A stretch of DNA of 64,000 nt from a bacterium (GCA_965202625.1 CBDBBI010000010.1:2240001-2304000), one strand, 5' to 3'. Counted from the first letter of the stretch, positions 11,085 through 40,839 are shown. The notes: generated by a model not told the origin, from the letters alone. A program made the numbers and translations.

Positions 11085-11199
11085 CGGGCGCTTTGGCCGG
11101 CTCATTTGCGGCTTGCATGGGAGCGGGGTTTTCGCCGTCCGTCGGGTCCGTTGATGGGTGGATGGTGAACCCGTACCAGGACGGCGTGCGCTGGCTGGG

Positions 11200-11706
11200 C
11201 GAGGAGCCACAACGCCGCGAGCCCTATGGGATTTCCATGAAGGGCGTGGGCTTCGTGCCCGAGGACAGGAGAATCTTTTTCGCCTGCGTGTGGAGGAAAA
11301 CGTTGAGGTTGGCGCGTTCAATCTGGACCGGTCTAGCCCCTGGACGCTCGGTCGCATATTATGGTCTTTTTTCTAAACGCGTTCCACTGAAAGTACACAA
11401 GGGAAACGAACTGAGGGGTGGGGAGCAGCAGATGCCGGCCATCGCCCGTGTCCCGATGGGCGCGCCCAAGCGCGTTGTAGGCGATGCGTCCTCTGAGGGT
11501 CTGGCGCCAGCCATCGGGAGGGGCGTGGGCGAGATGATCGGGGCGCTCCGGGACGAGGGGCTTGCCGTTCCCCTGGTGGAGCAAAACGCCCGCTTCTTTT
11601 GTCGGCTCTCTGAATTGCGTCTGCATCATCGGCGATGATCGGGTTTGTTTTCATGGCGCGGTGGCGCAACTTGAAGAGGAGGAAGAACGGAAATCGCGCT
11701 ATCTAG
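11200..11706 (+). pseudogene. Degenerate LivF-like branched-chain amino acid ABC ATPase remnant (approximate bounds)
   Basis: GVGFVPEDRRIF, VEENVEVG (other frame), decayed signature LRGGEQQMPAIAR, decayed Walker B (DASSEGLAP) and LVEQNA; no Walker A. Confidence 0.8.
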
Positions 11707-11753
11707 CCGTTTGATTTTCATTTTTCCGTCAATGGAAATGAGGAGGGTTTTGC

Positions 11754-12761: not shown

Positions 12762-12791
12762 CGCCCTCTTGTCGAGCTGGGAGATTCTACA

Positions 12792-13487
12792 ATGTGTGAA
12801 AAACAAGGTCTGACCGGGTACTTGAAGCCCACGGAATTTATTGATTCGGGCAATCCGGACGTCGTTTCGAAGGCGCAAGAACTCACAGAAGGCTGCGCGA
12901 ACGATAAGGAGAAACTCGGCAAAATCTATTATTTCGTTCGCGATTTTCCCTACGACATTCTGGACTCGTTCCGCTACCTTGCTGAGGGGAAGCGGCGAGC
13001 GAGCGACGTACTGAACAACGGCAAGGCGTTTTGCATGGGCAAGGCCAGCATGTTCGCCGCCCTTTGCCGGGCCTCGGGCATTCCTTCTCGCATCGGCTTT
13101 CAGCAACTTCATTGCCCAGACAAGCCTTTCATGAATGAGGAAGTCGCCAAAATTTGGGGAGATCGCAAACTGCCGTGGCACTCGCTGGGGGAGGCGTATC
13201 TCAACGGCAAGTGGCTCAAGCTGGATGCTACCATCGACAAGACGTTCGCCGCGCGAAAAGGACGGGAATATTCCCGGGAATTCGACGGTGAGAACGATAT
13301 TCCCTCTGTGGAGGGGCCCCTCATTAAAGACCTCCCCAGCCACATGGACTACCCGAAAGACGTGGCCCATTGGTATGAGCAGGTTGCCAAGGACGTCGTC
13401 GCTTCCGTTGATGAGAACGTCGTTCATAAGGATGTTCTCAGCGACGAGGAATGGTCTGGTCCCGATGCGGGGATTTTGAAGAGATAG
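12792..13487 (+). CDS. Transglutaminase-like (Cys-His-Asp) protein
   Basis: YL.PT.FID, AFCMGKA..FAALCRA.GIP.R and WH...EAYLNGKW..LDAT. Confidence 0.88.
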   Translation: MCEKQGLTGYLKPTEFIDSGNPDVVSKAQELTEGCANDKEKLGKIYYFVRDFPYDILDSFRYLAEGKRRASDVLNNGKAFCMGKASMFAALCRASGIPSRIGFQQLHCPDKPFMNEEVAKIWGDRKLPWHSLGEAYLNGKWLKLDATIDKTFAARKGREYSREFDGENDIPSVEGPLIKDLPSHMDYPKDVAHWYEQVAKDVVASVDENVVHKDVLSDEEWSGPDAGILKR

Positions 13488-13541
13488 GCAGCCCCTCGGG
13501 CCACTTTGGTGGATAAAGTCGTTCTATAAAAGGAGCTTTGG

Positions 13542-15050
13542 ATGTCGCGTGACCTCGTGAGGGTGGCCGAGTTTCCGCTCACCCAGGAAATGGAGCAGCA
13601 GTATATCGACGGGAATTGGCTCAGGGGAGAGCGTGGCGAGCCGGTGGACGTGGTGAATCCATCGAATAACGAAACGATTTTTCAGTTGTTTCCGGCGTCG
13701 GATGCGCAAGTTGACCAAGCCGTTGACTCCTCCTGGCGGGCGTTTCGTGATGCGGTCTGGAGGCGTATGCCCGCTTTGGAGCGCGGGAAACTTATCAACA
13801 ACCTTGCTGTGCTGATGCGGGAGCACGCAGAAACTCTCGCTAGATTAGAATCCATCAACACAGGCATTCCCATTCGAGAGAGTCGCTTGGAATCCGCTTC
13901 CTCCGCGCGCCATTTTGAGTATTTCGCGGGATGGTCCGGAAAAGTCTCGGGCAGTGCCCAGCCCCTCATGAACGATCGGATTATGTATTCGGTGAGAGAG
14001 CCTTTGGGGGTGGTGGCCATCGTCGTTCCGTGGAATACTCCGCTGAAGCTCATGTCCCGTGGGCTGGCCGCTGCTTTGGCCTGCGGTAATACGGTGGTCA
14101 TCAAACCCTCCGCCGTCGCCCTCGCCTCGGTGCTGTATTTTGGAAAGCTGGTTGAAGAGGCGGGGTTTCCACCGGGGGTGATCAACATCGTGGTGGGTTC
14201 GGGACGATCGACGGGCGCGAAGCTCGTGGGTCATCCGGACGTCAGAAAAATCGTCTTCACCGGTGGCACCGAGGGCGGCCTCGAAGTTCTTGGGCTCGCC
14301 GCCTCGAACGTGACTCCCGTGTTGGCGGAGCTGGGCGGCAAGGGTCCCATCATCGTTTGTGAGGACGCCGACCTTGACGAGGCCGCAGATGGCGTGATGA
14401 GTCAAGCCTTCGCGCGCCAGGGCGAGGTTTGTTTCGCTGGGACCCGCCTCTTTCTACCAAGTTCCATTTGCACAGAGTTCCTCGATAAAATTATCGCTCG
14501 CGTCAGTGAGATACGCGTCGGCGACGCCATGGATGAGGAAACCAACATGGGGCCTCTCATTTCCCGTGACCACCTTGCTGACGTCGTTGGTTACGTCGAA
14601 TCCGCACTGGCGGAAGGGGCGTGCGTCGCTTGTGGAGGCGGCCGTGCAGTACTTGCGGGGCAGTCAGACGGGAATTTTATGCAGCCCACGGTTCTCACCG
14701 GTGTGGACCAGGGCATGCGGGTGGCGCGTGAGGAGATTTTTGGGCCCGTTCTCACGGTTCACGAGTTCCATTCTCTCGATGATGCGGTGCGAGACGCCAA
14801 CGCCACGGAATTTGGGTTGGCGAGTTACATCTGGACGAGCGACCTACGACGGGCGCATCAACTGGCTGCCGATTTGGATTGCGGGAACGTGTTCGTCAAC
14901 ACCTACCGCTATGGTTCTGAGATTCCTTTTGGCGGCGTGCGAAAGAGTGGCATTGGCAGAGAGCATGGGGAAGAGGCATTGCGAGAATATACCCATGTCA
15001 AGAGCGTCTGTATCGGGCTCTCAAAATGGCATTCTTGGAATCGTGATTGA
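13542..15050 (+). CDS. NAD(P)-dependent aldehyde dehydrogenase
   Basis: PWN, FTGGT, ELGGKGP, catalytic Cys in GEVCFAG, EEIFGPV and PFGG.K.SG.GRE. Confidence 0.95.
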   Translation: MSRDLVRVAEFPLTQEMEQQYIDGNWLRGERGEPVDVVNPSNNETIFQLFPASDAQVDQAVDSSWRAFRDAVWRRMPALERGKLINNLAVLMREHAETLARLESINTGIPIRESRLESASSARHFEYFAGWSGKVSGSAQPLMNDRIMYSVREPLGVVAIVVPWNTPLKLMSRGLAAALACGNTVVIKPSAVALASVLYFGKLVEEAGFPPGVINIVVGSGRSTGAKLVGHPDVRKIVFTGGTEGGLEVLGLAASNVTPVLAELGGKGPIIVCEDADLDEAADGVMSQAFARQGEVCFAGTRLFLPSSICTEFLDKIIARVSEIRVGDAMDEETNMGPLISRDHLADVVGYVESALAEGACVACGGGRAVLAGQSDGNFMQPTVLTGVDQGMRVAREEIFGPVLTVHEFHSLDDAVRDANATEFGLASYIWTSDLRRAHQLAADLDCGNVFVNTYRYGSEIPFGGVRKSGIGREHGEEALREYTHVKSVCIGLSKWHSWNRD

Positions 15051-15082
15051 CATGAAGACGTGAATTTCAAGGAGGATTTACA

Positions 15083-16045
15083 ATGCAGAACAAAGGTTGG
15101 CTGACTTGTGCGCTCACTTTCCTCGCCCTTGGCGTGTGCGCTGCACCCGCCTCGGCGGCATATCCGACGAAGGCGGTGGAGATGACCATCACTTTCAAGG
15201 CGGGTGGAGCGGCGGACATCTCTGGCCGCACCGTGGCGAAGGCGGCTGAAAAAGTGCTCGGGCAGCCGATAGTCGCCGTGAATCGCCCAGGTGCCGGAGG
15301 GACGATCGGCTTTGCGTATGTCAAGACCGCGCCGCCTAGCGGCTACAAGATTGGCTGGCTTTCGGCCTCGATTTTAACCGGCACGAACATGGGGCGCCTC
15401 CCCTACGATTATGACGCGTGGGATTACGTTTCCCGGGTCGTGTTCGAGGCGACCGCCATCGTCGTTCGGAGCGACTCCCCCTACAAAACGCTTCCTGATC
15501 TCGTGGAGGCGGCCAAGTCGAAAACCCTGAAAATTGGAAGCGCCGGTTCTGGCAGCTTTACGAGGCTGACTGCCTCGGCGCTGGCGAAAAAGGCGGGCTT
15601 CAAGTTTCGCCACATCCCCTTGGGAAAACGCCGCGTGCCCAGCCTCCTTGGTGGAGAGGTCGAAGCGATTTCGGTACATCCGCCTGAGGTCTTGGCCCTT
15701 CATAAGGCGGGCAAAGTTCGAATGCTGGCCGTTTCCTTCCCGAAGCGGCATCCTGCTTATCCGAACGTTCCACTGTTCAGCGAGCATGGGTGGGACGTTG
15801 GTTTTTATCAGTTCAGGGGTCTACACGTTCCCAAGGGAACGCCCGCCGAAGCGGTGCAAAAGCTCCACAAGGCCTTCGAGACGGCTTCTCGGGATCCAAA
15901 GGTTCTGGCCACCGCCGAGAAAAGAGGTTTTCTGGTTTCTTATATGGGGCCAAATGAATTCCCGGGCTTCGTGGCTGAGCAAAACGCACTGATAAGAGAC
16001 ATTGTGGTTTCTCTGGGATTGGACAAGAGAAAAAAGAAAAAATAA
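15083..16045 (+). CDS. tctC: TTT substrate-binding protein TctC
   Basis: Signal peptide, YPTK, AGG.AD and NRPGAGG motifs. Confidence 0.93.
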   Translation: MQNKGWLTCALTFLALGVCAAPASAAYPTKAVEMTITFKAGGAADISGRTVAKAAEKVLGQPIVAVNRPGAGGTIGFAYVKTAPPSGYKIGWLSASILTGTNMGRLPYDYDAWDYVSRVVFEATAIVVRSDSPYKTLPDLVEAAKSKTLKIGSAGSGSFTRLTASALAKKAGFKFRHIPLGKRRVPSLLGGEVEAISVHPPEVLALHKAGKVRMLAVSFPKRHPAYPNVPLFSEHGWDVGFYQFRGLHVPKGTPAEAVQKLHKAFETASRDPKVLATAEKRGFLVSYMGPNEFPGFVAEQNALIRDIVVSLGLDKRKKKK

Positions 16046-16096
16046 ACTTCATCGCATCTTTGCTGAGAGCAAGAGGCCATAGGGGATCCGGCGTTC

Positions 16097-16585
16097 ATGA
16101 TGGAAAATGACGGGGAAATCCGGCGATTGCGCGTTGGGCGCACCATCGTTCCGGCTCTTCAGATGGTTTTTTGTGTTGGGTATGGTTTCCTCATTCTTGA
16201 GTTGCCCCAGGAGCACGGAGAGGAATATCCTTCGGGGCCTTCTTTTATGCCTTGGTTGTGGGTGTTGTTGCTCATCACTCTCACTTTGCTCGAAATCGGC
16301 GCGACCTGCTTTGATGTGCGCGAGAAGAGGGCGCGTGTCTCCATCGCGCGCAAGAGCGTTCTCGACGCCCTGCTCCTCGTCTTGTTGTTGACGGGATTCG
16401 CGCTCTCTATTCAGCGAATTGGTTTCTTCTCCGCCGCCGCGGCGTTTCTCACCATCTCCACCTGGTGGAGTGGAGTCCGCGCCTGGGGAATCCTTCTCCC
16501 CTATGCCATCATCTTCGCCGCGTTAGTGAACTATATTTTTCACCATGTTCTTCAAGTTCCCTTGCCCCAGGAAGGGCTCTTCTGA
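16097..16585 (+). CDS. tctB: TTT small membrane subunit TctB
   Basis: Hydrophobic, GPSFMP and L.VPLP.G motifs; position between tctC and tctA. Confidence 0.85.
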   Translation: MMENDGEIRRLRVGRTIVPALQMVFCVGYGFLILELPQEHGEEYPSGPSFMPWLWVLLLITLTLLEIGATCFDVREKRARVSIARKSVLDALLLVLLLTGFALSIQRIGFFSAAAAFLTISTWWSGVRAWGILLPYAIIFAALVNYIFHHVLQVPLPQEGLF

Positions 16586-16587
16586 AG

Positions 16588-18078
16588 ATGAACCTCCTTG
16601 TGGATGGCCTCGTCCATGCACTTGCGTTGAAGCCTTTTTTGTTCGCCGTCTTGGGGAGTTTTTTGGGAATCATATTCGCGGCTATTCCTGGCCTCACGGT
16701 GAGCATGGGAATCATTCTCCTACTGCCTTTTACCTTTCACATGGCCGGCGCGACAGCAATGAGCCTTCTCGTAGGTGTTTTCGTCGGCGGAATGACGGGG
16801 GGGAGTATCTCGTCCATCTTGCTCAACATTCCGGGCAATCCCGCCGCTATCGTCACGAGTCTGGACGGATACCCGCTCGCCCAGAGCGGGAAGGCGGGAA
16901 TCGCGCTGGGGGTCGCTTTCTTCTCCAGTTTTTGGGGCGGGTTGTTCAGTCTCGTCTGCTTAGCGACCATCGCGCCTCAGTTGGCGGATTTTGCCCTGAA
17001 CTTCGGCGCGCCGGAGCTGGCGGCGCTGGTCTTACTGGGGCTTTGCCTCATTTGTGGGTTCGCCCAGACATCAATGAGCAAAGCGCTTATCTCGGGCACC
17101 TTGGGTTTGGTCTTCTCCACCGTCGGCATGGACCCGATTGACTCGATACCGCGTTTCACGTTTTCCGTCGTCCAGATTCAGCAAGGCGTCTCTTTTCTAC
17201 CAGTGATGATCGGACTTTTCGCGGTGCCTGAAATCATATCGGGCATGCGCGGCTCCGCCGTTTCTTTGCCGTGTTTCTCCACGCGCCTGCGGGATTTGTT
17301 GCCCGCGCCGGGAATCTTCCTTGGACTTTGGAGGACGCTCGCGCAATCCTCTCTCATCGGAACGGCCATAGGACTTTTGCCCGGAACGGGAAGTGCCGTC
17401 GCCGCCGTGTTGAGTTACAACACGGCCCAGCGCCGCTCCGCGGAGCCGGAATCGTTCGGCACGGGAAAACTGGAAGGCGTGTCCGCGCCCGAGGCCGCCA
17501 ACAGCGCCATGACGGGCGGCGCGATGATCCCGATGCTCACGCTGGGAATTCCTGGTGATCCTGTCACTGCCGTGATGCTCGGCGCACTCACGATCCAGGG
17601 TCTCGCCCCAGGTCCTCTCTTGTTTGAGACTCACAGCGGCTTTGTATTTTCCATATTCGGGTCTTTTTTCATCGCCTTGTTTTTGACCATCATCATTGCG
17701 TTGCTGGGCATCCGTTTGTTCGTCCAGGTGTTGCGCGTGCCCCCGGGACTCCTTTTTCCAAGCATCGCTGTGTTTTGCGTCGTCGGGGCGTTTGCGCTTC
17801 AGAACAGCTTTTTCGATGTGTTTTTGATGATTGGGTTCGGACTGCTCGGCTTTTTTATGCAAAAATTTGATTATCCCATCATGCCTTTGTTGCTGGCGAT
17901 CATCTTGGGTCCCGTTTTTGAGAAAAACGCCAGAGTGTCGCTTATCCTCTCGGATGGCGACCCCACCATTTTCGTCCGCAAGCCGATCAGTTTGGTGTTT
18001 CTGATCGTGTCTTTGCTCTACCTCATCAGCGTTTTTCTAAAACGAACCTCCTTTTTGCGGAAGCGAGAGCCCGCCTGA
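16588..18078 (+). CDS. tctA: TTT large membrane subunit TctA (start refined to ATG 16588)
   Basis: AIPGL, NIPGNP...DGYP, APEAANSA and TLGIPGD motifs. Confidence 0.95.
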   Translation: MNLLVDGLVHALALKPFLFAVLGSFLGIIFAAIPGLTVSMGIILLLPFTFHMAGATAMSLLVGVFVGGMTGGSISSILLNIPGNPAAIVTSLDGYPLAQSGKAGIALGVAFFSSFWGGLFSLVCLATIAPQLADFALNFGAPELAALVLLGLCLICGFAQTSMSKALISGTLGLVFSTVGMDPIDSIPRFTFSVVQIQQGVSFLPVMIGLFAVPEIISGMRGSAVSLPCFSTRLRDLLPAPGIFLGLWRTLAQSSLIGTAIGLLPGTGSAVAAVLSYNTAQRRSAEPESFGTGKLEGVSAPEAANSAMTGGAMIPMLTLGIPGDPVTAVMLGALTIQGLAPGPLLFETHSGFVFSIFGSFFIALFLTIIIALLGIRLFVQVLRVPPGLLFPSIAVFCVVGAFALQNSFFDVFLMIGFGLLGFFMQKFDYPIMPLLLAIILGPVFEKNARVSLILSDGDPTIFVRKPISLVFLIVSLLYLISVFLKRTSFLRKREPA

Positions 18079-18325: not shown

Positions 18326-18845
18326 TCAGGCGTCCTCGTCTTCCTCTTCCTCGTCATCGGGTTCAAGGACGTGGGGAAACTTCGCGTAGAATTCCTCATC
18401 GCTCAGTCCCATGACCTCGTCATAGACTTGGCGCGCCTCGGTTCCGGGCCTGAGCGCGGCACTGGTGAGGGCTTGGTCCTGCATCTTCTTGGCGAGGTTC
18501 GAGATGCCGTGGGTCATGTTTGCCGTGGCCGCAATCACGGCCTTGTCCCACTGCGCCTCCGTGAACATCAGCAGTTTGACGTATTCGCGCGCCTCCGCGT
18601 GCACCTCTTCTTTTTCCGCATCGCTCATGCCGGCGTATTTGCAGCCGGGCCGCCTCCAGGGCTTTTTTCTGGCTCTCGGCGTCCTCCTTCAGGAATTTTG
18701 AGCCAGTCGCTCAATGTCGGCGACGAGTTCCTCTTCCGTTTCATGCCCTCGCCCAGACGTGCGACCCTGTCTCGTCTCCGTCCCGATACTGACGGCTATT
18801 CGTGCGCCGGCTTGGCGATGTAGGTTCCATGATCTCCACCGCCAT
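18326..18845 (-). CDS. Acidic hypothetical protein downstream of MuF, candidate immunity protein; intact ORF 18628-18326, 5' part apparently frameshifted
   Basis: AAGGAG RBS and TGATG coupling at 18847-18843. Plausible coding fragments (ETEEELVADIERLAQ, FLKEDAESQKKALEAARL) in shifting frames lead into MSDAEKEEVHAEARE...PDDEEEEDEDA. Confidence 0.55.
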
Positions 18846-21404
18846 CAGTCGATCTCCTTCATGTAGATTTTTAATTGCGCCGTCTTTCGGGCTTAATCCT
18901 TTCACCTCAAACCTCGTCCCGGAGGTGAAGAGGACCTCGCGCTCTCCGGGGAAAGCGGAAGCCCCGTTGATGCGCTTGCCGTGTCTGGATTGTACCACAA
19001 ATTCATGGGGTCCCCCAAACGCCGCCTCTCCGCTGTGGGAGGTGCTGAAAAAGCCCCGCTCCTCAAAAATTCCCCCCTTCTCGATTCCGTCAAGAACGTC
19101 ATCGGGCAGCGTCGTCCCGCGCTTCACCTCTCCGGCGTAGTCGGGCAGCTTGGCGAGGGCGTCCTTGAGGGTTTTTTCATAGTCGCGCACCGCGGCGATC
19201 TTCTTCTGGTCGCGGGAGCGCAGGGCGTCGTTCAGGGGCCCGTAGCCCCACTTCGAGTCGCTGGTTGTGTAGGCGTAGCGGGCCGCCATCTCTATATCGC
19301 TCAGGCCGTGGCGCTGCCCGTCCGGCATCCTGCCCCTGGCGGCGGAGAGAAAAGAGCGGAACTTCCGCCCCATCTGCTTTTTGAAGTTGCGGTGGGGCGC
19401 GGGGACGTTTTTGAGCGCTTCCATCGCCTTGCGGACTCTGGGTGCGATCTCGTTCTCCAGCAGGCGCGCGCGCCTTCGCAGGAGGTCGAGTATCGCGTCC
19501 CTGTCCGCTTTCGGGACGCCCTTCACGGCCGGAACGAGGTCGGCGAAGTCGTTCGTGCGCTCCCCGAGTTTTTTGATGTCCTCCATCTGGCGCAGGGCGC
19601 GGCGGCCGAGTTCGTCCGCGTCGATGAGGTCCGCCTTCTCGAATATCCGCACGTATGCGGGGTTGATGGAAGGGTTGCTGAAGCCGTCCCACTCGGCGAT
19701 TTTATGGAGGCGGTCCAACGGCTTGCGCCCCGCGCGTGCGCGGAACAGGAGGGAGCCGCCCTGGTCGATGCGGACGACCTTCTTTCCCGCTATGACGACG
19801 TTGTCGAGTTTGAGGCCCACCGCGTCCCAGTTGGCGAGCCAGACGTCGGCGGCAAAGCCATCCAGCACCTTGTTCGCGTGCGCTTTCGTCAACCTGTTCT
19901 TGCCGAGGGTTCCGGTGTTCTCGACGATCTCGCTGGCGATGGAGAGTTTCTTGCCCTCGCGGACGAGGGCGGAGGTCGGCGCCTCAAGCCCCAGCTCCCG
20001 ATAGATGCGGTTCGCCGCCGCCTCGGAGTAGGCCTGGGCGGGGTCGTCGTATTGCTTGACGTAGCGCTCCACCCCGTCCGCGCCCCGATAGAGTCCCCCC
20101 GGATTGCTGCCCTTCGGCCCCGAGATGCGCCGCTCCAGTGCGACTGCGGCGTCGAGTTCCGGTATGGCGCCCTTGCGCACCAGTTTGCCGTCGACGATCT
20201 CGGCCAGTTCCCGCTCCGCCGCCTCGAGCTCGTCCGCCGCCGCGCGTCTGAGCGACGTGAGATGAGTCGTGCGCCCATCCTCGGACGCCCGCACCGAGGC
20301 GCGCCAGAGCTTTTTGTCCTCCTCAAGGAAGGCGATCAGCGCCCTGTCGCTGTCGGCCGCCTGAAAGGCCCGGCCCTCATTCAGCATCCGCTGGACGCGG
20401 GCGTAGTCCTTCGCGCCCAGGTCCGGATGCCGCTTGCTTTGCTTCGCCGCCGTCTCCGCGCTCAGGCGCACAGCGCGGGATTTTATGCCCATCGTCCTGG
20501 CGATGTCGTCTCCGAGCGCTGCCACGGGCCAGTCGCCCGCGCTCTTGCCCGCAAGGTGCAAGCCAAACGCACGCCCCCCTTCGCCCTCAATGAAGTCCTG
20601 AGCGACGGCGGGCGCAAGGTCGGGCGCCGCGTCCATCCTGGAGATCGCGCGCTCCAGGGGGTCTTTCACCACGCCGGCAGGGGCACCACCCGCCTGTGCG
20701 CCCACGTTGTGATCCCAGCCGGAGTCGATTCCTTCCGGAACGCGGACGACCTCTCCCGTCCGGGAGTTCACGCGCGCCGACTTGCGGCGGCTGGGGCGCC
20801 GCTCGCTCGGTGCGAAGCCGAACTCCTCAAGGTCCGCATCCGAGAGCTGCATCACCGTGCACCGGCAGCCCCACCCGTTGGGCGGATAGTGCGTGCGCCA
20901 GAAGGGATCGTTCACAGGCAGGACGACGCCGTGCCAGGAGGCGTGCGCCGGTCGGGTCGAGGCGTCAAGAACCGCCGAGTAGCGCAGCCAGGGCGCGTTT
21001 TGCTTCTCCGCCTGTATGCGCCGCCACCGCCCGGCGGCGTAGGAGGTCCGCAGGTTCGTCTCGTAGATGACCCGCAACCGATGCGACGAGCCCAGCTGGA
21101 CGACGCGCGTCTTCCCCGTCAGCGGGTCTTTCATCTCCGCACGACCCCACCACCCGCGCTTGCGAAGCAACGGCTCCAGCGCATCCTGAAAATCCGCGAG
21201 AGAGCTCCCCTCGATTATCGCCCGATCCACCTCCGCCCGAACGTCGCCGAGAACGTCCATGCGCATCGCCTTCGCCACGCTGAACGCCCGCGCGTGCTCC
21301 GCAGCCTCCACGTCGCGCCAGTCAAATCCCACCGCGTAGCCCTTCGCGCGAAAAAAATCCACCGCCTCCCCAGGCGGAACGTCTAAAATCTCAGGCGCAG
21401 GCAT
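18741..21404 (-). CDS. MuF (Mu gpF/SPP1 gp7-like head morphogenesis) polymorphic toxin with PBECR-like region, HipA/PI3K-like kinase and ADP-ribosyltransferase
   Basis: MuF motifs AF.VAK, GWWG, RL..IY.TN..T.Y.AGR, TRP.H and YPPNGWGCRC. Kinase motifs GPKGSNPG, YVK, SEAAA, NWD..G...DN and IDQG. ART motifs YT...GY..LN.ALR, KRG, FFSTS and EREVLF..GTRFEV. Confidence 0.88.
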   Translation of the reverse strand: MPAPEILDVPPGEAVDFFRAKGYAVGFDWRDVEAAEHARAFSVAKAMRMDVLGDVRAEVDRAIIEGSSLADFQDALEPLLRKRGWWGRAEMKDPLTGKTRVVQLGSSHRLRVIYETNLRTSYAAGRWRRIQAEKQNAPWLRYSAVLDASTRPAHASWHGVVLPVNDPFWRTHYPPNGWGCRCTVMQLSDADLEEFGFAPSERRPSRRKSARVNSRTGEVVRVPEGIDSGWDHNVGAQAGGAPAGVVKDPLERAISRMDAAPDLAPAVAQDFIEGEGGRAFGLHLAGKSAGDWPVAALGDDIARTMGIKSRAVRLSAETAAKQSKRHPDLGAKDYARVQRMLNEGRAFQAADSDRALIAFLEEDKKLWRASVRASEDGRTTHLTSLRRAAADELEAAERELAEIVDGKLVRKGAIPELDAAVALERRISGPKGSNPGGLYRGADGVERYVKQYDDPAQAYSEAAANRIYRELGLEAPTSALVREGKKLSIASEIVENTGTLGKNRLTKAHANKVLDGFAADVWLANWDAVGLKLDNVVIAGKKVVRIDQGGSLLFRARAGRKPLDRLHKIAEWDGFSNPSINPAYVRIFEKADLIDADELGRRALRQMEDIKKLGERTNDFADLVPAVKGVPKADRDAILDLLRRRARLLENEIAPRVRKAMEALKNVPAPHRNFKKQMGRKFRSFLSAARGRMPDGQRHGLSDIEMAARYAYTTSDSKWGYGPLNDALRSRDQKKIAAVRDYEKTLKDALAKLPDYAGEVKRGTTLPDDVLDGIEKGGIFEERGFFSTSHSGEAAFGGPHEFVVQSRHGKRINGASAFPGEREVLFTSGTRFEVKGLSPKDGAIKNLHEGDRLMAVEIMEPTSPSRRTNSRQYRDGDETGSHVWARA

Positions 21405-32910: not shown

Positions 32911-34698
32911 TTGCCCCGAATGAATGGCGGCCAAATCATCGTCGATTATCTGATCCAGGAACGCGTCCCCTATGTCTTTGGTCTGTGCGGACATGGGAAC
33001 ATCAGTTTTTTGGACGCGCTATATGAACGCGCCGATGAAATCAAGACGCTCTCCGTGCGCCATGAGTCGCTGTGCGGCTTCATGGCCGATGTATATTACC
33101 GGGTGGCGAATCGACCGGTGGCGACGTTCACCTCCTGCGGGCCGGGTTCCGCCAACATGCCGATCTCTCTGGCCAACGCTTTTTTTGATTCGGTTCCGTT
33201 TCTGGCCGTGACCGGAAACGTCCCCACGAGTCAGTTCAACCGCGGGGCGTTTCAGGAAACCTATCGCCACTATCAAGCGGATTTCCCCTCGACCGTGCAG
33301 GCGTATTGTAAGCGGGTGTATCAGCCGACGCGGGCGGAGATGGTGCCGCAGTTCACGCGCCAGGCGTGGAAGACGATGATGACTGGAAGAGCCGGCCCCG
33401 TTGTGCTCGACGTGCCCTTCGACGTTTTCAAGGAGGAAGCCGAAGTAGAGATGCCGCAGGCCGCCGCGTGGAACGGGAACGTCTCCTGCCGTTGCGGGGC
33501 GGATCCCGTAGGGGTGAAAAGAGCCGTCGAGATGCTTTTGTCCGCCGAGCGGCCGGTGATGTTGGTGGGCCAAGGCGTTAAATACAGCGGCGCGGCGGCG
33601 GAGATGGTCGCGCTCGCTGAAAGATTGAGGATTCCCGTCGCGTGCTCGGCAAGCGGGATGGGGGCCATCGACGCAGACCATCCCTTGTCCTTGGGCCTCA
33701 TCGCCAGAAACGGGACCTATCCGGCGAACCACGCCGCGCGGCAGGCCGACGTTTTACTGGCGCTCGGTGTGCGTTTCGACGACCGCACCTCAAGCAGTTG
33801 GCTGCCTGGATATTCGTTCAACATTCCGCCGACGAAGCTGATTCACGTGGATATCGACCCCGAGGAAATCGCGCGCAACTATCCCGTGGCCCTGGGTCTC
33901 ATGGCGGATGTGGGCGCTTTTCTGAACCAGGTGAAAGAAGCGCTGAACGCTTCAGGGGAAATAGAGATTCCAGGTGCCCGGGCGAGATGGCTTCGCGAGA
34001 TCGATGGCTGGCGAAACGAGTGGGAGGAGTTCACGGCTCTTGGCTATCGGGAGGACACTGAGCCCATCCACCCCCAGCAGGCGGCCCGTGAGATCGACAA
34101 GGCTTTGCCTGATGACGCCATCCTTGTCAGCGACGTTGGCGTTCACCACAACTGGCTGATTCAGTTTTGCCGTCCCAAGGGGCCGCAATCGTTGATCGGC
34201 TCCATGGGTTTTGGCGCTATGGGTTTCGGCGTGGCGGGTGTGCTGGGAGCGAAGCTGGCGGCGCCAGACAGATCTTGCGTCTCGGTATGCGGGGATGGCG
34301 CTTTTGCCATGCACCTGAGCGCCATCGCCACGGCGGTGGAATACGGCATTCCCGCCGTCTGGATCGTCTGGAACAATTACGCTTTCGCCTCCATCCGAGG
34401 GCTTCAGCGTGGCTATCTGGACGGTCGTGAGCTGGCCACCGATTTTCAGGAACACGATTCCGCCGCGCCCTACAATCCCGATTTCGTCGCTATGGCGGAG
34501 GCGGCGGGCGTTGCGGGAGTGCGGGTGAACAAGGCGGCCGATTTGAGCGAAGCCGTGGAGGAAGCGTTGAAAGCGGAGCGCCCCTACGTGATCGACGCGA
34601 ACGTTCAGGGAGAGGAAAACCCCGCCGGCGCCGGCGTCTGGGAATTGCCCGGCCTGGGGCGCGGAGAGCCCGGAATTGGCGCGCGGACGGTTTTATAG
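32911..34698 (+). CDS. ThDP-dependent enzyme (acetolactate synthase-like superfamily)
   Basis: FGLCGHGN, VRHE, GPG..N and the ThDP motif GDG...WNN. Confidence 0.92.
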   Translation: MPRMNGGQIIVDYLIQERVPYVFGLCGHGNISFLDALYERADEIKTLSVRHESLCGFMADVYYRVANRPVATFTSCGPGSANMPISLANAFFDSVPFLAVTGNVPTSQFNRGAFQETYRHYQADFPSTVQAYCKRVYQPTRAEMVPQFTRQAWKTMMTGRAGPVVLDVPFDVFKEEAEVEMPQAAAWNGNVSCRCGADPVGVKRAVEMLLSAERPVMLVGQGVKYSGAAAEMVALAERLRIPVACSASGMGAIDADHPLSLGLIARNGTYPANHAARQADVLLALGVRFDDRTSSSWLPGYSFNIPPTKLIHVDIDPEEIARNYPVALGLMADVGAFLNQVKEALNASGEIEIPGARARWLREIDGWRNEWEEFTALGYREDTEPIHPQQAAREIDKALPDDAILVSDVGVHHNWLIQFCRPKGPQSLIGSMGFGAMGFGVAGVLGAKLAAPDRSCVSVCGDGAFAMHLSAIATAVEYGIPAVWIVWNNYAFASIRGLQRGYLDGRELATDFQEHDSAAPYNPDFVAMAEAAGVAGVRVNKAADLSEAVEEALKAERPYVIDANVQGEENPAGAGVWELPGLGRGEPGIGARTVL

Positions 34699-34782
34699 GG
34701 TGAATGCGCGATGATCCGAGACGATGCGGCTTGGGCCTTCTTCAATGAGGGAGAGTTGAAAGCTCGCGGGAGGAAACGGGCG

Positions 34783-35406
34783 ATGAGCGATGAGGCGCGG
34801 TTGCGCGCGGCGGCGGACAAACTGGAGATGATGGAGACGTCCATGTTTTCCCACTTTTGTCGGGACGCGGGCGACTGGGAGAATCTGCTGGATTGCTTCC
34901 ATCCGGACGCGGATATCACCACCTCGTGGTTCTCGGGCAACGCGCACGAGTTCATTCGGGATTCGCGCCGGATGATGAGCGGCCATCACGCGGAGGATTC
35001 TCAAAAGCACGTCGCCGGCACCGCGTGGGCGCGGGTGGGCGGTGCGCGCGGGGTTTGCGAGTACTACCTCGTCCTGCATCAAAGAAGGGCGATCGATGGC
35101 TATGACTTTGACTTCTCGACCTGGAGCAGCGTGCTGGATTTGCATGAGCATAAGGATGGGCGGTGGCGCGTCATCAAGCGCACGATGATATACGAGAAGG
35201 ACCGGATGGACCCTTACAGGCCGGGCGAGGTTCCAGCGTCTTATTTTCAGGCGATGGACCTCACTCCTTATCCGAAAGCGCTTCGCTATCACTGCTGGCG
35301 CAACGCGAAGTTCAGCGGGCACTTTCCGACGGAGAATCTCGTGCTTGAGAACACCGAACGGGCGCGCCGAATCAGAGAAGAGGCGCGCCAGTGGGTGAAA
35401 GGATAG
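34783..35406 (+). CDS. SnoaL/NTF2-like family protein
   Basis: RD.GDW..L..CFHPDA, D......DG.WR...R..IYEKD; GGAGG RBS before 34783. Confidence 0.8.
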   Translation: MSDEARLRAAADKLEMMETSMFSHFCRDAGDWENLLDCFHPDADITTSWFSGNAHEFIRDSRRMMSGHHAEDSQKHVAGTAWARVGGARGVCEYYLVLHQRRAIDGYDFDFSTWSSVLDLHEHKDGRWRVIKRTMIYEKDRMDPYRPGEVPASYFQAMDLTPYPKALRYHCWRNAKFSGHFPTENLVLENTERARRIREEARQWVKG

Positions 35407-35553
35407 AGAAGACCGCGCCGTAGCGCGCGATTCACGTCCCGCCTCAAACCTTCGCAATCCCCATAGCGAAAAATTCCAAAAGAGACTTCTTTCTACACGC
35501 TTGAGAAATAATTTTTTAGTGAATAAAATTTTTGTAATTTCCATCAAAAAAAC

Positions 35554-35582
35554 TTGACAATATAATAAATTTTTAATATATT
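35554..35582 (+). promoter_or_regulatory. Near-consensus sigma70 promoter for the GHKL island
   Basis: TTGACA (35554-35559), 17-bp spacer, TATATT (35577-35582), with an AT-rich upstream region. Confidence 0.75.
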
Positions 35583-35629
35583 TTTTAGATAGAAATACGC
35601 TTATTATTCCTTGCGATAAAGGAGAAAAA

Positions 35630-35896
35630 ATGGATATTTCTTCTCAGAAAATTAAAGGAGTTGAATCAATAAAATTTCCATCAAAGAGAGAAAAATTTAG
35701 AACCCTGGCAGAAAAACGAACCATCAACGCGCTCAAAGCCATTCGGGTGATCAGCAAGTTGGGCAATCGCAATGCTTATGACTACGACGAAACGGATGTC
35801 AGGAAGATTGTCAAAGCACTCAAAGGTGAAATTGACGCATTAGAGGTTCGTATGAAGAACAACAAGGGTTCTGATGAGGTTAATTTCACTCTCTAA
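35630..35896 (+). CDS. Small basic helical hypothetical protein (88 aa)
   Basis: AAGGAG RBS; sequence KREKFRTLAEKRT..ALKAIR.I.KLGNR.AYDY...DV.KI..AL; first gene of the island operon. Confidence 0.85.
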   Translation: MDISSQKIKGVESIKFPSKREKFRTLAEKRTINALKAIRVISKLGNRNAYDYDETDVRKIVKALKGEIDALEVRMKNNKGSDEVNFTL

Positions 35897-35916
35897 ATTC
35901 GGAGGTTAGGGAAGAG

Positions 35917-38406
35917 ATGAAAGACAATTATATATTGTGTCTTGATCTGCTTTCTTGCAACAGCGAAGATAATTTTATTGCATTACTTAAAACGGAAGGA
36001 TATTGGGACATACCGGAACTGTGGCGTCATTACGGCGATGTTGAAAATAATTGGGGCCAAAGTGGTAGTCAGCAGAATTTGGCCGAGACTGCTCTGGCCG
36101 AGAAAATTGTTAACTCCGTCGATGCTCGACTTATCAATGAATGCTATGAGCACGGAATGGAGCCCACCGATCCTCAAGCTCCGCAGTCGGTCCAAGCAGC
36201 CATCGCACGTTTTTTTGAAGATGGTTCAGGCGATAGGACTGTAACTGGCGGCTTGATCGAAAATTGGGGACATCCTCGAATCCGGGAGATTGCGGAGGGG
36301 ATCACTTTATGTGTTACAGGCACCCGGCCTGAGTCCCTCAACATCACGATTGCAGATTGCGGCGAAGGGCAGACTCCCACTCGTCTCCCGGATACGATTT
36401 TATCCCTTAGTAAAAACAACAAACTGTATATCCCCTTTGTTCAAGGGCAGTTCAATCAAGGTGGGAGTGGAGCGCTTCGCTTTTGTGGAAAGCATAGCCT
36501 TCAACTTGTAGTGAGTAGGCGTAATCCTAAACTATTGAAGGAGAGCAGCACCGCGCGCGCGAGAGAGTGGGGTTTTACCATCGTGCGAAGAGAACGCCCT
36601 TCTGGAAATCGAAAAAACTCTAAATACACTTATCTAGCACCCGTAGGTGTTGACAAAGAGAATAACCCTCATCGTGGTGATGTCTTGTCGTTTTCGGCCA
36701 AGAGCTTTCCGATATTCCCGAACGACAATGGACCGTATGCGCGAGAAACAGGGTATGGAACTGCCATTAAAATGTTCAATTACCGTTTTGTAGGTGAGAA
36801 ATCGAACATATTGCGGGGTAAGAGCTTGCTTAGCCGTCTCGATCTCTTGCTGCCGAAAATTGCTTTACCTGTCCGATTATATGAGTACAGGACGAACAAG
36901 AAAGGCGAATTTCTCGATATTGGAAGCCGGCGAACGACCCTCTCTGGGTTGTTGCGTCGTCTGATCGACAACGAAAAAAATGTTGAGGATGGTTTTCCGA
37001 TTGCCGTCCCCCTCCATTTTGAAGGAGAGAAGTTGGTCGTGCACATTTTTGCCTTCAGGCCAGGTGGAGCGCGCAGCTATCGTAGGCGCGAGGGTGTTGT
37101 TTTCATGCGCAACGGTCAAACTCAGGGCAACCTACCAAAGGATTTTTTCCGGCGCGATGCCGTGAAGATGAAACCTCTCGCCGATGACCTTTTGGTTTTT
37201 GTCGATTGTGATGAGTTGAGCAACTTCGTCCGTGAATATCTGTTTATGACGAATCGTACCCAGCTTGTCGATAACAAATTCAAAAAAGATTTAGTCGATA
37301 ATCTGCAGAAGACCATCCACGATTGCACAGAGCTAAAAGAGCTTCGACATCAAAGGCAGAAAGAGCGGACGAGCGAACAATTGAAGAACGAGCAGCCATT
37401 TACTGATGTTTTGCAAGCCTTGATTAAGAACTCACCGAACCTTAGGACACTACTCGAGTTGGGAGAGCGGATATCCGCGCCTTTCGACACTCGGCCGACG
37501 AAATCCGACCCGGAAGGAGAATTTCAAGGCGAATTCTATCCTACTTATTTTAAGACAAAGCGCATTAATTACGGGACAATACATAAGCGTCCCTGCCCTA
37601 TCAACCAGGGAATGCGGTTTAATTTCGAGACGGATGCGCGCGATGATTACTTTACGCGCTTTGCAGAGTGTGGTTCATTCGAGCTAACATGGATTGGTAA
37701 AGACGGTAACGAACGGAAAACCAGTTGGCGGGGTCCGAAGTTGAAGAGTGGATCTTCAACTGTAACATTAGTTTTGCCTGACGATGTGGCCGTTGGTGAT
37801 GAGATCGAGTTTATCGCACGAGTGAGGGATTCTTTCCGAAAGTTTGAAAATCGCTTTATCGTCAATGTGAAGCCGAAGTCAAAGCCCAAAGATAATCCTA
37901 ATCCCCCCGCCCCTAAGCCTGCACCTCCTGGTTCAGAGGACGGAAAGCGGCGTGAAGGCCCCTTATCCCTTGCTCTACCCAGAATCAAACGTGTTTATCG
38001 AGAGCAGTGGGATGAGAACGATTTCGATGAACTTACCGCTATGAAGGTAGAGTGTGTCGACTATACGAAAGACGAAAAAACGGAAATCTATGAATTCAAG
38101 GTGAACATGGACAACATCCCTCTCGCAAACGAGGCTACTCGAAAGCACTTGGATGTTAACCAATATGAAGTGCTGCGCCAGCGGTTTCTTTATGCGAATG
38201 TCCTGATAGGTTTATCACTTTTGCATGATGAGAAGCAAAGTCGCCTCCAACCAGAAGACGAGGGGGATATGCGTCAGGAGCATATAGAGGCTCGCATTGA
38301 CAGGACATGCCGTGCGTTGGCGCCTTTCTTGCCTGCGATTTTTTCTCTTGGGACGGGTGAGCTGGGAGCCGACGATCGGATCGATGGTTTAGAGGAAGCT
38401 GTATAG
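35917..38406 (+). CDS. GHKL (MORC/MutL/HtpG-like) ATPase-domain protein, 829 aa
   Basis: Bergerat-fold motifs EKIVNSVDA, IADCGEG, QGQFNQGGSG and GTAI; Pro-rich linker; C-terminal helical domain; GGAGG RBS. Confidence 0.82.
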   Translation: MKDNYILCLDLLSCNSEDNFIALLKTEGYWDIPELWRHYGDVENNWGQSGSQQNLAETALAEKIVNSVDARLINECYEHGMEPTDPQAPQSVQAAIARFFEDGSGDRTVTGGLIENWGHPRIREIAEGITLCVTGTRPESLNITIADCGEGQTPTRLPDTILSLSKNNKLYIPFVQGQFNQGGSGALRFCGKHSLQLVVSRRNPKLLKESSTARAREWGFTIVRRERPSGNRKNSKYTYLAPVGVDKENNPHRGDVLSFSAKSFPIFPNDNGPYARETGYGTAIKMFNYRFVGEKSNILRGKSLLSRLDLLLPKIALPVRLYEYRTNKKGEFLDIGSRRTTLSGLLRRLIDNEKNVEDGFPIAVPLHFEGEKLVVHIFAFRPGGARSYRRREGVVFMRNGQTQGNLPKDFFRRDAVKMKPLADDLLVFVDCDELSNFVREYLFMTNRTQLVDNKFKKDLVDNLQKTIHDCTELKELRHQRQKERTSEQLKNEQPFTDVLQALIKNSPNLRTLLELGERISAPFDTRPTKSDPEGEFQGEFYPTYFKTKRINYGTIHKRPCPINQGMRFNFETDARDDYFTRFAECGSFELTWIGKDGNERKTSWRGPKLKSGSSTVTLVLPDDVAVGDEIEFIARVRDSFRKFENRFIVNVKPKSKPKDNPNPPAPKPAPPGSEDGKRREGPLSLALPRIKRVYREQWDENDFDELTAMKVECVDYTKDEKTEIYEFKVNMDNIPLANEATRKHLDVNQYEVLRQRFLYANVLIGLSLLHDEKQSRLQPEDEGDMRQEHIEARIDRTCRALAPFLPAIFSLGTGELGADDRIDGLEEAV

Positions 38407-38408
38407 CT

Positions 38409-39614
38409 TTATTGTGTCCGATGGACAAGAACGACCTCTCGTGAGCCGGGAGAGCGTGATTTTTGTTGAGCGTGCCATTTGCGATTAGGCACATCGCGCC
38501 AAAGACGGCCATCCCTCGCGTTGATGTTCCAAGGTAATTCCTCGCGCAATCCGCAGTCATCCATCACTTCAAGGTATTGCGAAAGTTGCCATCCCGCCTC
38601 TGAGAACCCGACCATCTGGACAATGGTCGTTTCTGGTCCGGCTATCCGCGCGATGGATCGAAAGGATTCTTTTAGGTTCTCAAAGTATGATCTTAGTTTC
38701 GAGTTCTTTCTGTTTCCCATTGTATAGTAGGCTGATCCGTTGCCATCGAGTGTGTTCGCGATCCAAAAAGGCGCGGACGACTCACGCCGTCCGTCCACTT
38801 GCCAACGGTGATAAAGAATATGAATACCGGGATAAGGAGGCGAAGTGACGATGAGCCTAGGTGGGGATATTTGTTTTACAATGTTTTCGGCTTCTGCTCC
38901 GGCGGCGCTCCTATTTAAGCACATTGCTCGCGACTCTAGTGTGTTGCTTGAGCCATTGATTTTCCTGCGAAACGTTAGAGCATCCTCTAACATCGCCCCA
39001 GCTCGTCGCTGAAGTTCTACACGAAAGCTTGCAATTGAGGGACGTATTTTTCGAGCATCAAGCGCCCATTGTGCTGTGCGTAGCACGACACAGCGAGCGA
39101 GGGTACGTGCGCCCTGACATCGAAGTCGTTTCACGGAAGCCAAGCATTGTTCAATCGCTTTGCGGAGTCTCCAAAACTCGTGACCCCCAAGGTTTTTGTA
39201 ATAACCCGCATCGGCGTAGGTAGTGAAGCGAAAACCTGCCGCGTGCATGTTCACAACACCTGGCATGCGCATCATCCATCGCTTAAACGCGCCGACATCC
39301 TGAGTGGTTAAGATGAGAGTCTTCGCTTCGCAAATAAACGTTGCTAGCGAGCTAACGTCAATGCCGAGCGCGTTGCGTCCTGAAGCCAAGGCTTCAACGA
39401 GCGTGGTGCCACCGCCGACGAAAGGGTCAACAACCCAATCCCCTGGTTTTGAAAATGCTTTAATCACCGCCTGCACAAATGTGGGTGAGAATCTAGCGGG
39501 ATAACGATAGAAGCCATGAGTGAGTCCCGACACACGTTTGGGGCATCGCGCCGCTAGAATAATTTTCTCGATGCTCGCTTGCACATGTTTTGATTCTAGA
39601 TTGAATGCGCTCAT
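38409..39614 (-). CDS. DNA amino-methyltransferase, probably N4-cytosine (FGG before SPPY)
   Basis: THGFYRYPARFSP, V.DPFVGGGTT.VEA...GR...GID and IVTSPPY. Confidence 0.88.
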   Translation of the reverse strand: MSAFNLESKHVQASIEKIILAARCPKRVSGLTHGFYRYPARFSPTFVQAVIKAFSKPGDWVVDPFVGGGTTLVEALASGRNALGIDVSSLATFICEAKTLILTTQDVGAFKRWMMRMPGVVNMHAAGFRFTTYADAGYYKNLGGHEFWRLRKAIEQCLASVKRLRCQGARTLARCVVLRTAQWALDARKIRPSIASFRVELQRRAGAMLEDALTFRRKINGSSNTLESRAMCLNRSAAGAEAENIVKQISPPRLIVTSPPYPGIHILYHRWQVDGRRESSAPFWIANTLDGNGSAYYTMGNRKNSKLRSYFENLKESFRSIARIAGPETTIVQMVGFSEAGWQLSQYLEVMDDCGLREELPWNINARDGRLWRDVPNRKWHAQQKSRSPGSREVVLVHRTQ

Positions 39615-39681
39615 TTTCCCGTTCGTTCTGTTCGCCGTCGCAAGCGGATTTAGGCGGAAGAAACTCGTTTTTTCTAAAGCC

Positions 39682-40839
39682 TCACAACAACCCTATGTAA
39701 ATTCGTCTCATGTCCTCGGCGTCGGCGGGTACGGGGTTCGTCGCCACGGTGTGGCTGGCGGCCGCCTCGCGCGCCATGCGCTCCAGGTATTCCTCCTTCG
39801 CGCCGAGGGTGGCGAGCGATTCAGGAATTCCGATATCATCCGCTAGGGAGCGAACGCGCGCGATGGCGAGTTCCGCGTCTTGCGTCCCATCTTTTTTCAC
39901 CGCGTTCGGGTCGGCCAGAAGCGGGGTGAGACGCGCGTATTTCTCGCGCATGGCGGACAAGTTGAACTGCATCACAGGGGCGAGGAGCACTCCGTTGGTG
40001 GTTCCGTGGTGGCCGCCGAAGAAGTGGAATACCGGATGCGTGAGTCCATGGACGATGCCCAGCCCGGTGTTGGTGAAGGCGGCACCCGCCAGACACGCCG
40101 ACAGCGCCAGAGGGTCGGCGGCGTCCGCGTCGGCGGGGTCGGCAACGAAGCGACGTGCGTTTTTGCCGATGAGGCCGATAGCCTGGAAGCAGAGCGCTTC
40201 CGTCCAGGGGTTGGCGCGCGGGGAGCCGAGGGATTCCACCGCGTGGGTGAGGGCGTCCATCAGCGCGCCGGCGGCGTAGAATTTTGGCAGCCCCGCGAGA
40301 AGGGACGAATCCACTACCGCCACGTCGGCGTAGAGCACGTCGCTGTGAACGCTCGCTTTGGTTCCCCGCTCGACGTCGGTGATGATGGCGCCGCGCGTCA
40401 CCTCGCTGCCCGTGCCCGCCGTAGTGGGTGCGGTGATGAAGGGCGGAATGCGTTTTATCACTTTGTCGGCCCCATAGTAGTCGCTCAGGCGTCCGCCGTT
40501 GGCGAGCAGTGCGCCCATCGCCTTGGCTGTGTCGATGACGCTTCCGCCGCCGGCGGCGATCATCCCCCGGCAGCCGTTCTCCTCGTAAAACGTCCGCGCG
40601 CGCGTGATGCTCCCATCCGACGGATTGGGCTCGACTTCTTCATACAGGCAGTATTCGACGCCTGCCTTTTCGAGTCCTCCCGTGATGGGGGAGAGCACAC
40701 CGGCTCGCGAAAGCCCAGGATCGGCGAGCAGCATGGGGCGTTTCATGCCCAGCTCCCTTGCTTCGGAGCCGATCTTCGCGGCCTCCCCTCGGCCGAAGCG
40801 CACGCGCGATACGGCACACGTGCGGAAAGGGTCGATCAT
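39682..40839 (-). CDS. Iron-containing alcohol dehydrogenase
   Basis: GGGSVID.AK, PTTAGTGSE, DALTHAVE and H.L.H....HHG. Confidence 0.95.
   Translation of the reverse strand: MIDPFRTCAVSRVRFGRGEAAKIGSEARELGMKRPMLLADPGLSRAGVLSPITGGLEKAGVEYCLYEEVEPNPSDGSITRARTFYEENGCRGMIAAGGGSVIDTAKAMGALLANGGRLSDYYGADKVIKRIPPFITAPTTAGTGSEVTRGAIITDVERGTKASVHSDVLYADVAVVDSSLLAGLPKFYAAGALMDALTHAVESLGSPRANPWTEALCFQAIGLIGKNARRFVADPADADAADPLALSACLAGAAFTNTGLGIVHGLTHPVFHFFGGHHGTTNGVLLAPVMQFNLSAMREKYARLTPLLADPNAVKKDGTQDAELAIARVRSLADDIGIPESLATLGAKEEYLERMAREAAASHTVATNPVPADAEDMRRIYIGLL

Follow-up and report, generated by a model that had tools for sequence, protein, structure and literature searches.

A stretch of bacterial DNA of 64,000 nucleotides (GCA_965202625.1, CBDBBI010000010.1:2240001-2304000; the whole of it is called the window here, with positions counted from its first letter) carries a cassette of three genes in 4.2 kb that recurs, in the same layout, in genomes from several phyla. 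The largest of the three genes encodes a protein of 829 amino acids (aa) which, judged from its structure model, is a GHKL ATPase with a transducer domain; a gene for a basic protein of 88 aa precedes it on the same strand, and a gene for a DNA methyltransferase of 401 aa converges on it from the other side. Here it is proposed that the cassette is probably built like a restriction-modification system with the ATPase in the position of the restriction enzyme and, more tentatively, that the ATPase would act as an effector that clamps unmarked DNA and has no nuclease of its own. A first-pass annotation of the window had singled out the locus as a candidate undescribed defence system with no visible nuclease; its three open reading frames (ORFs) are intact at the place given there, and all three genes can be aligned end to end with their homologues. 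The features of the locus are as follows.

35533..35540, + strand, half-site TGTAATTT of a conserved palindrome, candidate operator, 14 nt upstream of the -35 hexamer
35554..35582, + strand, sigma-70-like promoter, recognised from sequence only
35630..35896, + strand, gene for the 88-aa basic helical protein (ORF; upstream of the GHKL gene in all close intact loci)
35917..38406, + strand, GHKL ATPase gene, 829 aa (structure model, Foldseek, invariant ATP motifs)
Residues 1-30 of the GHKL protein, N-terminal helices (secondary structure of the model)
Residues about 36-300, Bergerat ATPase domain (model)
Residues about 304-450, S5-type transducer (model)
Residues 454-514, helical region (model)
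Residues 545-652, all-beta domain (model)
Residues 655-688, disordered proline-rich linker (model, low confidence)
Residues 689-815, alpha/beta plus helical C-terminal domain (model)
37549..38403, + strand, C-terminal third of the GHKL protein, residues 545-829 (conservation; no family match)
38409..39614, - strand, N4/N6-type DNA methyltransferase gene, 401 aa (Pfam N6_N4_Mtase, PADLOC MTase_II, PDB methylases)

The GHKL ATPase and its family

The large protein had been read as a GHKL/MORC-like ATPase with all four GHKL motifs, and both the fold and the family alignment agree with this. A structure model computed from an alignment of 129 diverse family members, which replaced a poor first model from 18 close homologues (predicted local distance difference test, pLDDT, 55.6), reached a pLDDT of 90.6 and a predicted template modelling score of 0.90. 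Foldseek searches of this model against the PDB returned HtpG/Hsp90, Topo VI-B, the GyrB 43K fragment, ParE and human MORC4, with E-values of 8e-12 to 1e-9 and a probability of 1.00, the MORC4 match (7k7t) having a TM-score normalised to the target of 0.51; the matches in the viral library were phage topoisomerase subunits, rIIA proteins and uncharacterised giant-virus proteins. The key residues of the ATP site are invariant across the 129 members. These include E62, N66 and D69 of motif I (ExxxNxxD), all of them invariant, D147 (1.00), G149 (0.99) and G151 (1.00) of motif II (DxGxG), and G177 (1.00), G182 (1.00) and G185 (0.91) of the glycine-rich motif III (G177...G182-G183-x-G185), followed by G281 (0.99) and T282 (0.77) of motif IV (GT). 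K169, W218, P318 and R325 are likewise invariant.

The assignment to the GHKL class therefore comes from the fold matches and the family-wide conservation and not from a database match. The 829-aa protein has zero matches in Pfam, NCBIfam and PADLOC at E-values up to 1, no HATPase_c or HATPase_c_3 match rises above the gathering score in the window protein or in 49 relatives, and PDB sequence searches with the single protein and with the family profile gave nothing relevant. The family itself is large: a word-indexed search found 1096 proteins at E <= 0.001, the best 120 of which are all 815-860 aa long, 54-67% identical and either without a name or called 'hypothetical', and a profile search of 1.84 billion cluster representatives (clusters at 50% identity) found 2549 at E <= 0.001 and 870 at E <= 1e-30. 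Longer, fused forms of the family were looked for separately and not found, which is weak evidence.

Distribution of the cassette and of its relatives

A locus scan with one genome per species returned 42 loci, and a full-length GHKL gene in a single frame, at 50-67% identity, was present in 24 of them (L001-L016, L018-L021 and L023-L026). In every one of these the small gene precedes the GHKL gene on the same strand and the methylase gene faces it from downstream, so the three families co-occur beyond the window in one and the same layout. The methylase of L008 is cut off by the contig end. In L020 (4221-5968), the small and GHKL genes are separated by an inserted gene pair for a NotI-family restriction endonuclease and a D12-class adenine methylase, and in L026 (8626-11528) extra ORFs without a Pfam match lie between the GHKL gene and the methylase, among them a second, divergent GHKL-like stretch that has 27% identity to residues 17-325. 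The hosts of intact cassettes are Alpha- and Gammaproteobacteria, Nitrospirales, Phycisphaeraceae, a cyanobacterium and Oceanobacillus; since these hosts belong to several phyla, the unit moves horizontally. The identity of the methylase to that of the window goes along with the identity of the GHKL protein (r = 0.84 over the 24 loci). The patchy distribution across phyla at 50-67% identity and the low-GC island in which the window copy lies together point to a mobile element rather than to a housekeeping function.

The pattern of decay is also consistent with a link between the ATPase and methylation. In three further loci (L017, L022 and L028) the GHKL gene is spread over two or three frames, and here the methylase is fragmented (L017), absent from the 6 kb downstream (L022) or unseen before the contig end (L028). 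An intact GHKL gene without a methylase was not seen among the close loci, as would be expected if the ATPase harms unmarked DNA. The methylation-linked role that had been suggested for the locus thus fits both the gene layout and the decay pattern.

Relatives at 27-37% identity do not have the small protein. In L027 a homologous methylase (43% identical) is convergent with the GHKL gene and a gene of the DndB family lies upstream, in L030 the neighbours are an N6_N4 methylase of 944 aa and an AAA protein with PDDEXK_9, and the Acidimicrobiia loci L032, L033 and L042 have a convergent PLD-SNF2 helicase, which matches the PADLOC C3a139 and DrmD models, and an Eco57I/DrmMI-like methylase. ORFs in L034, L036 and L037 match this helicase and methylase in size and position only, the domain scan being limited to L032, L033 and L042, and no modification gene was found among the neighbours scanned in L029 and L031. 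Three plasmid homologues (L043-L045) stand beside Ssp-type phosphorothioation genes, with SspC identified by PADLOC and genes of the PAPS-reductase family, DUF4007 and a cysteine-desulfurase-like type by annotation; SIR2, DUF262 and 'sensor histidine kinase' (GHKL-like) genes are also near them. Searches of PADLOC models against eight GHKL relatives gave 0 matches at E-values up to 0.001. The Acidimicrobiia (L032-L038 and L042) and plasmid loci may be further uncharacterised modification-dependent systems.

The methyltransferase

The 401-aa protein matches Pfam N6_N4_Mtase over residues 36-88 (5.5e-16), 62 PADLOC models, all 25 among the matches listed being Type II methylase (MTase_II), and several solved methylases in the PDB. 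The matches from all three sources are confined to the S-adenosylmethionine-binding stretch, residues 36-90. Motif I, DPFVGGGT (63-70), comes before motif IV, SPPY (258-261), and both are kept in 25 of 25 full-length homologues; the FGG...SPPY arrangement noted before is accordingly seen here as FVGGG at residue 65 and SPPY at 258. The SPPY motif presumably favours N4-methylcytosine as the product of the window enzyme.

The small protein and a conserved palindrome

The small protein is basic, as had been observed, with a pI of 9.8 and 20 Lys and Arg residues against 13 Asp and Glu, and it has neither His nor Cys. Its family has a conserved helical core of 70 residues that is rich in Lys and Arg. 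A HepT-like Pfam match appears in 9 of 28 members at sub-threshold scores only (best E 5e-4), and a HepT/HEPN RNase was rejected as its identity; with no histidine in the protein, the Rx4-6H site of HEPN enzymes is impossible. PDB and ESM Atlas searches with the small protein returned nothing usable, the Atlas matches being unnamed clusters only, and a predicted complex of the GHKL protein with the small protein scored 0.00, a value that carries no weight either way.

Upstream of the small gene, the near-consensus sigma-70 promoter described in the first-pass annotation is present as TTGACA-17-TATATT, with 11 of 12 consensus matches; promoter-like sites in general are about as frequent in the region as expected (5 against 4.7). 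A palindrome with the family form TGTAA-A/T-TTACA lies close by, as TGTAAATTACA in L001, TGTAATTTAGAGGAAATTACA in L014 and the half-site in the window. In 14 of 24 loci examined, the window included, a copy of the 8-mer or of its complement begins 360-400 nt upstream of the GHKL start; L013, which has no upstream sequence, was left out of the palindrome count. There are 17 hits in the 984 nt at that position, against 9 in 324,926 nt of these loci away from it. In the alignment of the upstream regions of the close loci, near-invariant columns are found only in the palindrome, and almost nothing else is common to them. Because the palindrome is kept across phyla, a cassette-encoded protein would be expected to bind it, and the small basic protein suggests itself for this role. 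The palindrome may thus be the operator of a cassette-encoded regulator, which suggests that the small protein is a controller or DNA-binding partner encoded by the cassette itself.

An exact 13-nt direct repeat, AATTTCCATCAAA, occurs at 35536-35548, where it overlaps the palindrome half-site, and at 35673-35685, within the coding sequence of the small gene towards its 5' end. It may be a chance occurrence in AT-rich DNA or a second binding site.

The C-terminal third and the question of a nuclease

The absence of a visible nuclease, noted from the start, holds for every collection searched: no nuclease family in Pfam, NCBIfam, PADLOC or the PDB sequences matches the GHKL protein. The Foldseek lists for the whole protein were filled by GHKL proteins, and the negative for a C-terminal nuclease accordingly rests on the sequence searches. 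Pfam searches with 16 C-terminal parts taken from all clades gave nothing recurrent or above threshold (11 were empty and 5 had single, unrelated, weak matches), shorter proteins matching residues 535-829 were fragments of the same family only, and an ESM Atlas search with the C-terminal part returned unnamed clusters only. The proline-rich linker and the YEFKVNMDN sequence that had been pointed out in this part of the protein are both there, the former with 10 prolines in residues 655-690 at low pLDDT and the latter with N730 (0.98) and N733 (1.00).

The conserved C-terminal residues are T572, D573, Y578, F579, R581, D638, P688, W698, N730, D732 and N733. Across the 129 members, the sole invariant positions in the last 380 residues of the family are P542, P688 and N733, and no acidic, His or Cys residue there is invariant; the best-kept acidic residues, D573 (0.93), D638 (0.94) and D732 (0.90), fall short of invariance, with D573 replaced by Asn in some close relatives.

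The strongest alternative to a nuclease-free effector, considered unlikely here, is that the C-terminal third (residues 545-652, the NMDN domain at 689-776, or both) is a novel nuclease or nickase that would cut unmethylated DNA after closure of the clamp. Precedents for such an arrangement are described in the accessible text of the sources: the C-terminal endonuclease of MutL and the restriction-endonuclease fold of paraMORC3 (PMC2292703), the DUF4263 of VcSduA (PMC12137116) and Tiamat (10.64898/2026.09.30.754977). The polar cluster T572, D573, R581, D638, N730, D732 and N733 is conserved, a minimal cassette needs some effector, and among the close loci no GHKL gene was found intact without a methylase. 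Set against this, the ATPase residues are 100% invariant while the C-terminal 380 residues contain no invariant acidic one, the change of D573 to Asn occurs among close relatives, there is no conserved constellation of His, Cys or Lys, Pfam matches of the 16 C-terminal parts were neither recurrent nor above threshold, no PDB sequence match was found, and the Acidimicrobiia relatives have a separate PLD nuclease-helicase. Because no nuclease matches, no acidic residue is invariant and a related clade has its nuclease in a separate PLD protein, the C-terminal evidence tilts towards an effector without a nuclease of its own.

Proposed mode of action

In the reading preferred here, the three genes form a cassette that moves horizontally and is organised like a restriction-modification system with a controller. 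The methyltransferase would mark the host's own DNA, and the GHKL/S5 ATPase, occupying the 'restriction' position, would be the methylation-gated effector. The GHKL protein would dimerise through its C-terminal region, as other GHL proteins do, and its ATPase domains would close upon ATP binding, clamping DNA that has no mark; a clamp architecture of this type is given as the general model for GHL proteins in the introduction of 10.64898/2026.09.30.754977 and in the accessible part of PMC2292703. The small basic protein would bind the TGTAAATTACA-type element by the promoter and so time the expression of the ATPase after transfer to a new host. The ATPase would presumably be toxic in the absence of the methylase. 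Unmethylated DNA would be blocked or entrapped, possibly with a read-out through the methylase, and this outcome is preferred over direct cleavage. The restriction-modification-like frame seems rather probable, and the full statement, which includes a nuclease-free effector of the clamp type, is put forward tentatively, at somewhat less than an even chance.

Several observations weigh against this reading. A nuclease-free cassette leaves the means of stopping an invader unexplained, and D573, D638, D732 and N730/N733 could form an unrecognised active site. Neither Pfam nor the PDB nor the ESM Atlas gave a helix-turn-helix (HTH) or other DNA-binding family match for the small protein, and the palindrome could be residual promoter homology or the site of another protein. 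All three frameshifted loci come from a single series of long-read metagenome-assembled genomes, so assembly errors may account for some of the frameshifts, and the contig of L028 stops 279 bases past the match. As for the ATPase, the window protein has N-R-T-Q at residues N446-Q449 (37252-37263) in place of the S-R-D-R of the family (0.88-0.99), which its closest relatives keep, and sub-threshold HATPase_c_3 matches occur in 7 of 49 relatives (best 1e-4, 22.7 bits vs a cut-off of 25), the window protein not being one of them.

An incomplete or dependent module, in which the ATPase and methylase would sense and mark DNA and a nuclease from outside the cassette, belonging to the host or to an unlinked partner, would do the killing, appears quite improbable. 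Other clades do have separate effectors (the PLD-SNF2 helicase; SIR2, DUF262 and a second GHKL-like protein; the PDDEXK_9 ATPase in L030), and the NotI-family endonuclease and D12 methylase of L020 lie inside the cassette; but L020 is a single case among 24, with an insert that resembles a restriction-modification pair in its own right, and the three-gene unit crosses phyla intact with nothing else conserved beside it, which makes a specific unlinked partner unlikely and leaves only a universal host factor. Least probable is a function outside defence, either a selfish methylase-linked addiction module or an epigenetic, DNA-repair or chromosome-organising module acting on methylated host DNA: methyl-directed repair involves GHKL/S5 proteins, MutL for one (PMC2292703, accessible text), no phage-related trigger or effector was identified, and the window island has catabolic flanks and does not lie in an obvious defence island, but the patchiness over phyla (50-67% identity) and the low GC content of the island speak for mobility, relatives stand beside Ssp, SIR2, DUF262, DndB and PLD-SNF2 genes, which are typical of defence loci, and addiction is a property of restriction-modification systems themselves rather than an alternative to them.

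Comparison with known systems

The layout of the cassette resembles that of some controller-regulated type II restriction-modification systems, Esp1396I among them: one operon holds the small gene and the effector gene, and the methylase gene is transcribed on its own from the opposite side. The palindrome by the operon promoter, the mobile low-GC cassette and the decay of the effector gene where the methylase has decayed or is not seen are further points of likeness. The cassette differs from these systems in that its 'R' gene encodes an 829-aa ATPase without a recognisable nuclease, and in that its small protein has no HTH family match.

Methylase-linked GHKL ATPases were predicted in restriction-modification loci by Iyer, Abhiman and Aravind in 2008 (PMC2292703), and the accessible text of that work includes a minority of neighbourhoods that have methylases and no helicase, as well as families with distinct C-terminal extensions. 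With the MORC and paraMORC proteins described there, the family shares an N-terminal GHKL domain and S5 transducer with intact ATP motifs, sporadic lateral mobility and the linkage to methylases. The identity with MORC proper was rejected because the signature of its S5 domain (GhXhhpXXRhl, as given in the accessible text) was found by regular-expression search in 0 of 129 members, the window protein included. The C-terminal hallmarks of paraMORC3, 4 and 5, the three of the five paraMORC families to which this comparison extends, were likewise looked for: the restriction-endonuclease fold of paraMORC3 (E-D-ExK) and the TIR domain of paraMORC4 have no Pfam match in the whole protein or in the C-terminal parts, and the HxH of paraMORC5 is absent from the window protein. 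The small upstream protein and the palindrome are features of the cassette that the accessible text of PMC2292703 does not mention. The locus is thus undescribed in part only: systems of its kind were predicted in 2008, and what appears to be novel, on the searches made here, is this Pfam-unrecognised family and the minimal three-gene form.

Tiamat is a GHKL ATPase fused to the PD-(D/E)xK nuclease DUF3883, with DUF3684 also present (10.64898/2026.09.30.754977), and VcSduA, a Shedu variant, is a GHKL ATPase fused to the PD-(D/E)xK nuclease DUF4263 (PMC12137116). As far as the accessible text of these sources goes, both resemble the window protein in having an N-terminal GHKL ATPase that is proposed to clamp DNA and control the effector, and both differ from the cassette in being single-gene systems without a dedicated methylase. 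Identity with Tiamat was rejected because DUF3684 and DUF3883 were undetected, and identity with Shedu/VcSduA because DUF4263 was undetected. The likeness to class 1 DISARM and Hma is confined to the distant Acidimicrobiia relatives, which adjoin a PLD-SNF2 helicase and a DrmMI/Eco57I-like methylase; the window cassette differs in having neither a helicase nor a PLD domain, and no Drm or Hma model matches the GHKL protein. Identity with Hma was likewise rejected, HmaC being a DUF499 ATPase and not a GHKL protein in the accessible text of PMC11232893 and PMC8565338, as were the HEF_HK/Response_reg_2 elements (PMC8011034, accessible text), there being no PF19191 match.

The PADLOC check proposed for the locus came out in the same sense: none of the named systems in PADLOC-DB v2.0.0 (among them Tiamat, Shedu, Hma, DISARM, Ssp and the Dnd restriction parts) has a model that matches the ATPase (0 at E-values up to 1), and the only cassette protein with matches is the methylase, to the generic Type II methylase models. 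In the full-text literature searched, with subscription journals and REBASE outside its scope, no paper describing the three-gene cassette was found, and the only GHKL proteins linked to defence were Tiamat and VcSduA, both nuclease-fused.

Genomic context of the island

The cassette had been described as an AT-richer island among catabolic genes, which the base composition and the Pfam matches of the flanks support. The GC content is 0.33 at 35500-35999 and 0.47-0.53 over 36000-39499, against 0.57-0.70 in the flanks, where a thiamine pyrophosphate enzyme, a SnoaL-like protein, an Fe-alcohol dehydrogenase and acyl-CoA dehydrogenases are encoded. The stop codon of the GHKL gene (TAG, 38404-38406) and that of the opposed methylase gene (38409-38411) are separated by 2 bp, as had been read before. 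The immediate neighbour ORFs span their Pfam models in full, and two ORFs farther off cover theirs in part (Amidase, 22-246 of 445; DHDPS, 2-183 of 289). Neither direct nor inverted repeats were found flanking the island ends, no tRNA adjoins it, the phage collection searched gave no matches, and an Rfam scan of 34500-40500 gave a single match, flpD (E 0.036), which is under the gathering score.

Elsewhere in the window, an 887-aa ORF on the - strand (18741-21404) combines a Phage_Mu_F domain with a C-terminal ADP-ribosyltransferase domain (a MuF-type fusion). It comes after a long run of ORFs on the same strand (2040-18078), and this run may be a prophage.

Significance

A large protein family is missed by Pfam, NCBIfam and PADLOC, and every source that names its members calls them hypothetical. 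The cassette is a minimal system in which the role of a GHKL ATPase in methylation-based discrimination of self from non-self would be tractable, a question that was raised by comparative genomics in 2008 and for which no experimental answer for MORC-like proteins was found in the literature searched. If the effector is nuclease-free, it would represent a non-degradative mode of restriction and a bacterial model of MORC-type DNA clamping; if a nuclease is hidden in it, the fold of this nuclease would be new and a GHKL motor would be coupled to it. Because the family is linked to three kinds of DNA-modification module, it is suggested as a marker for further modification-dependent defence loci. 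A bolder proposal, conceivable and on balance somewhat doubtful, is that a bacterial MORC-like clamp, for which a partner methyltransferase sets self apart from non-self, topologically traps or silences unmethylated incoming DNA and leaves it uncut, and that the family is a general ATP-driven read-out module for at least three DNA-marking chemistries, namely the small N4/N6 methylase, the Eco57I-like methylase with a PLD-SNF2 helicase, and Ssp phosphorothioation. If this were true, the family would be the prokaryotic counterpart of methylation-linked MORC silencing in eukaryotes.

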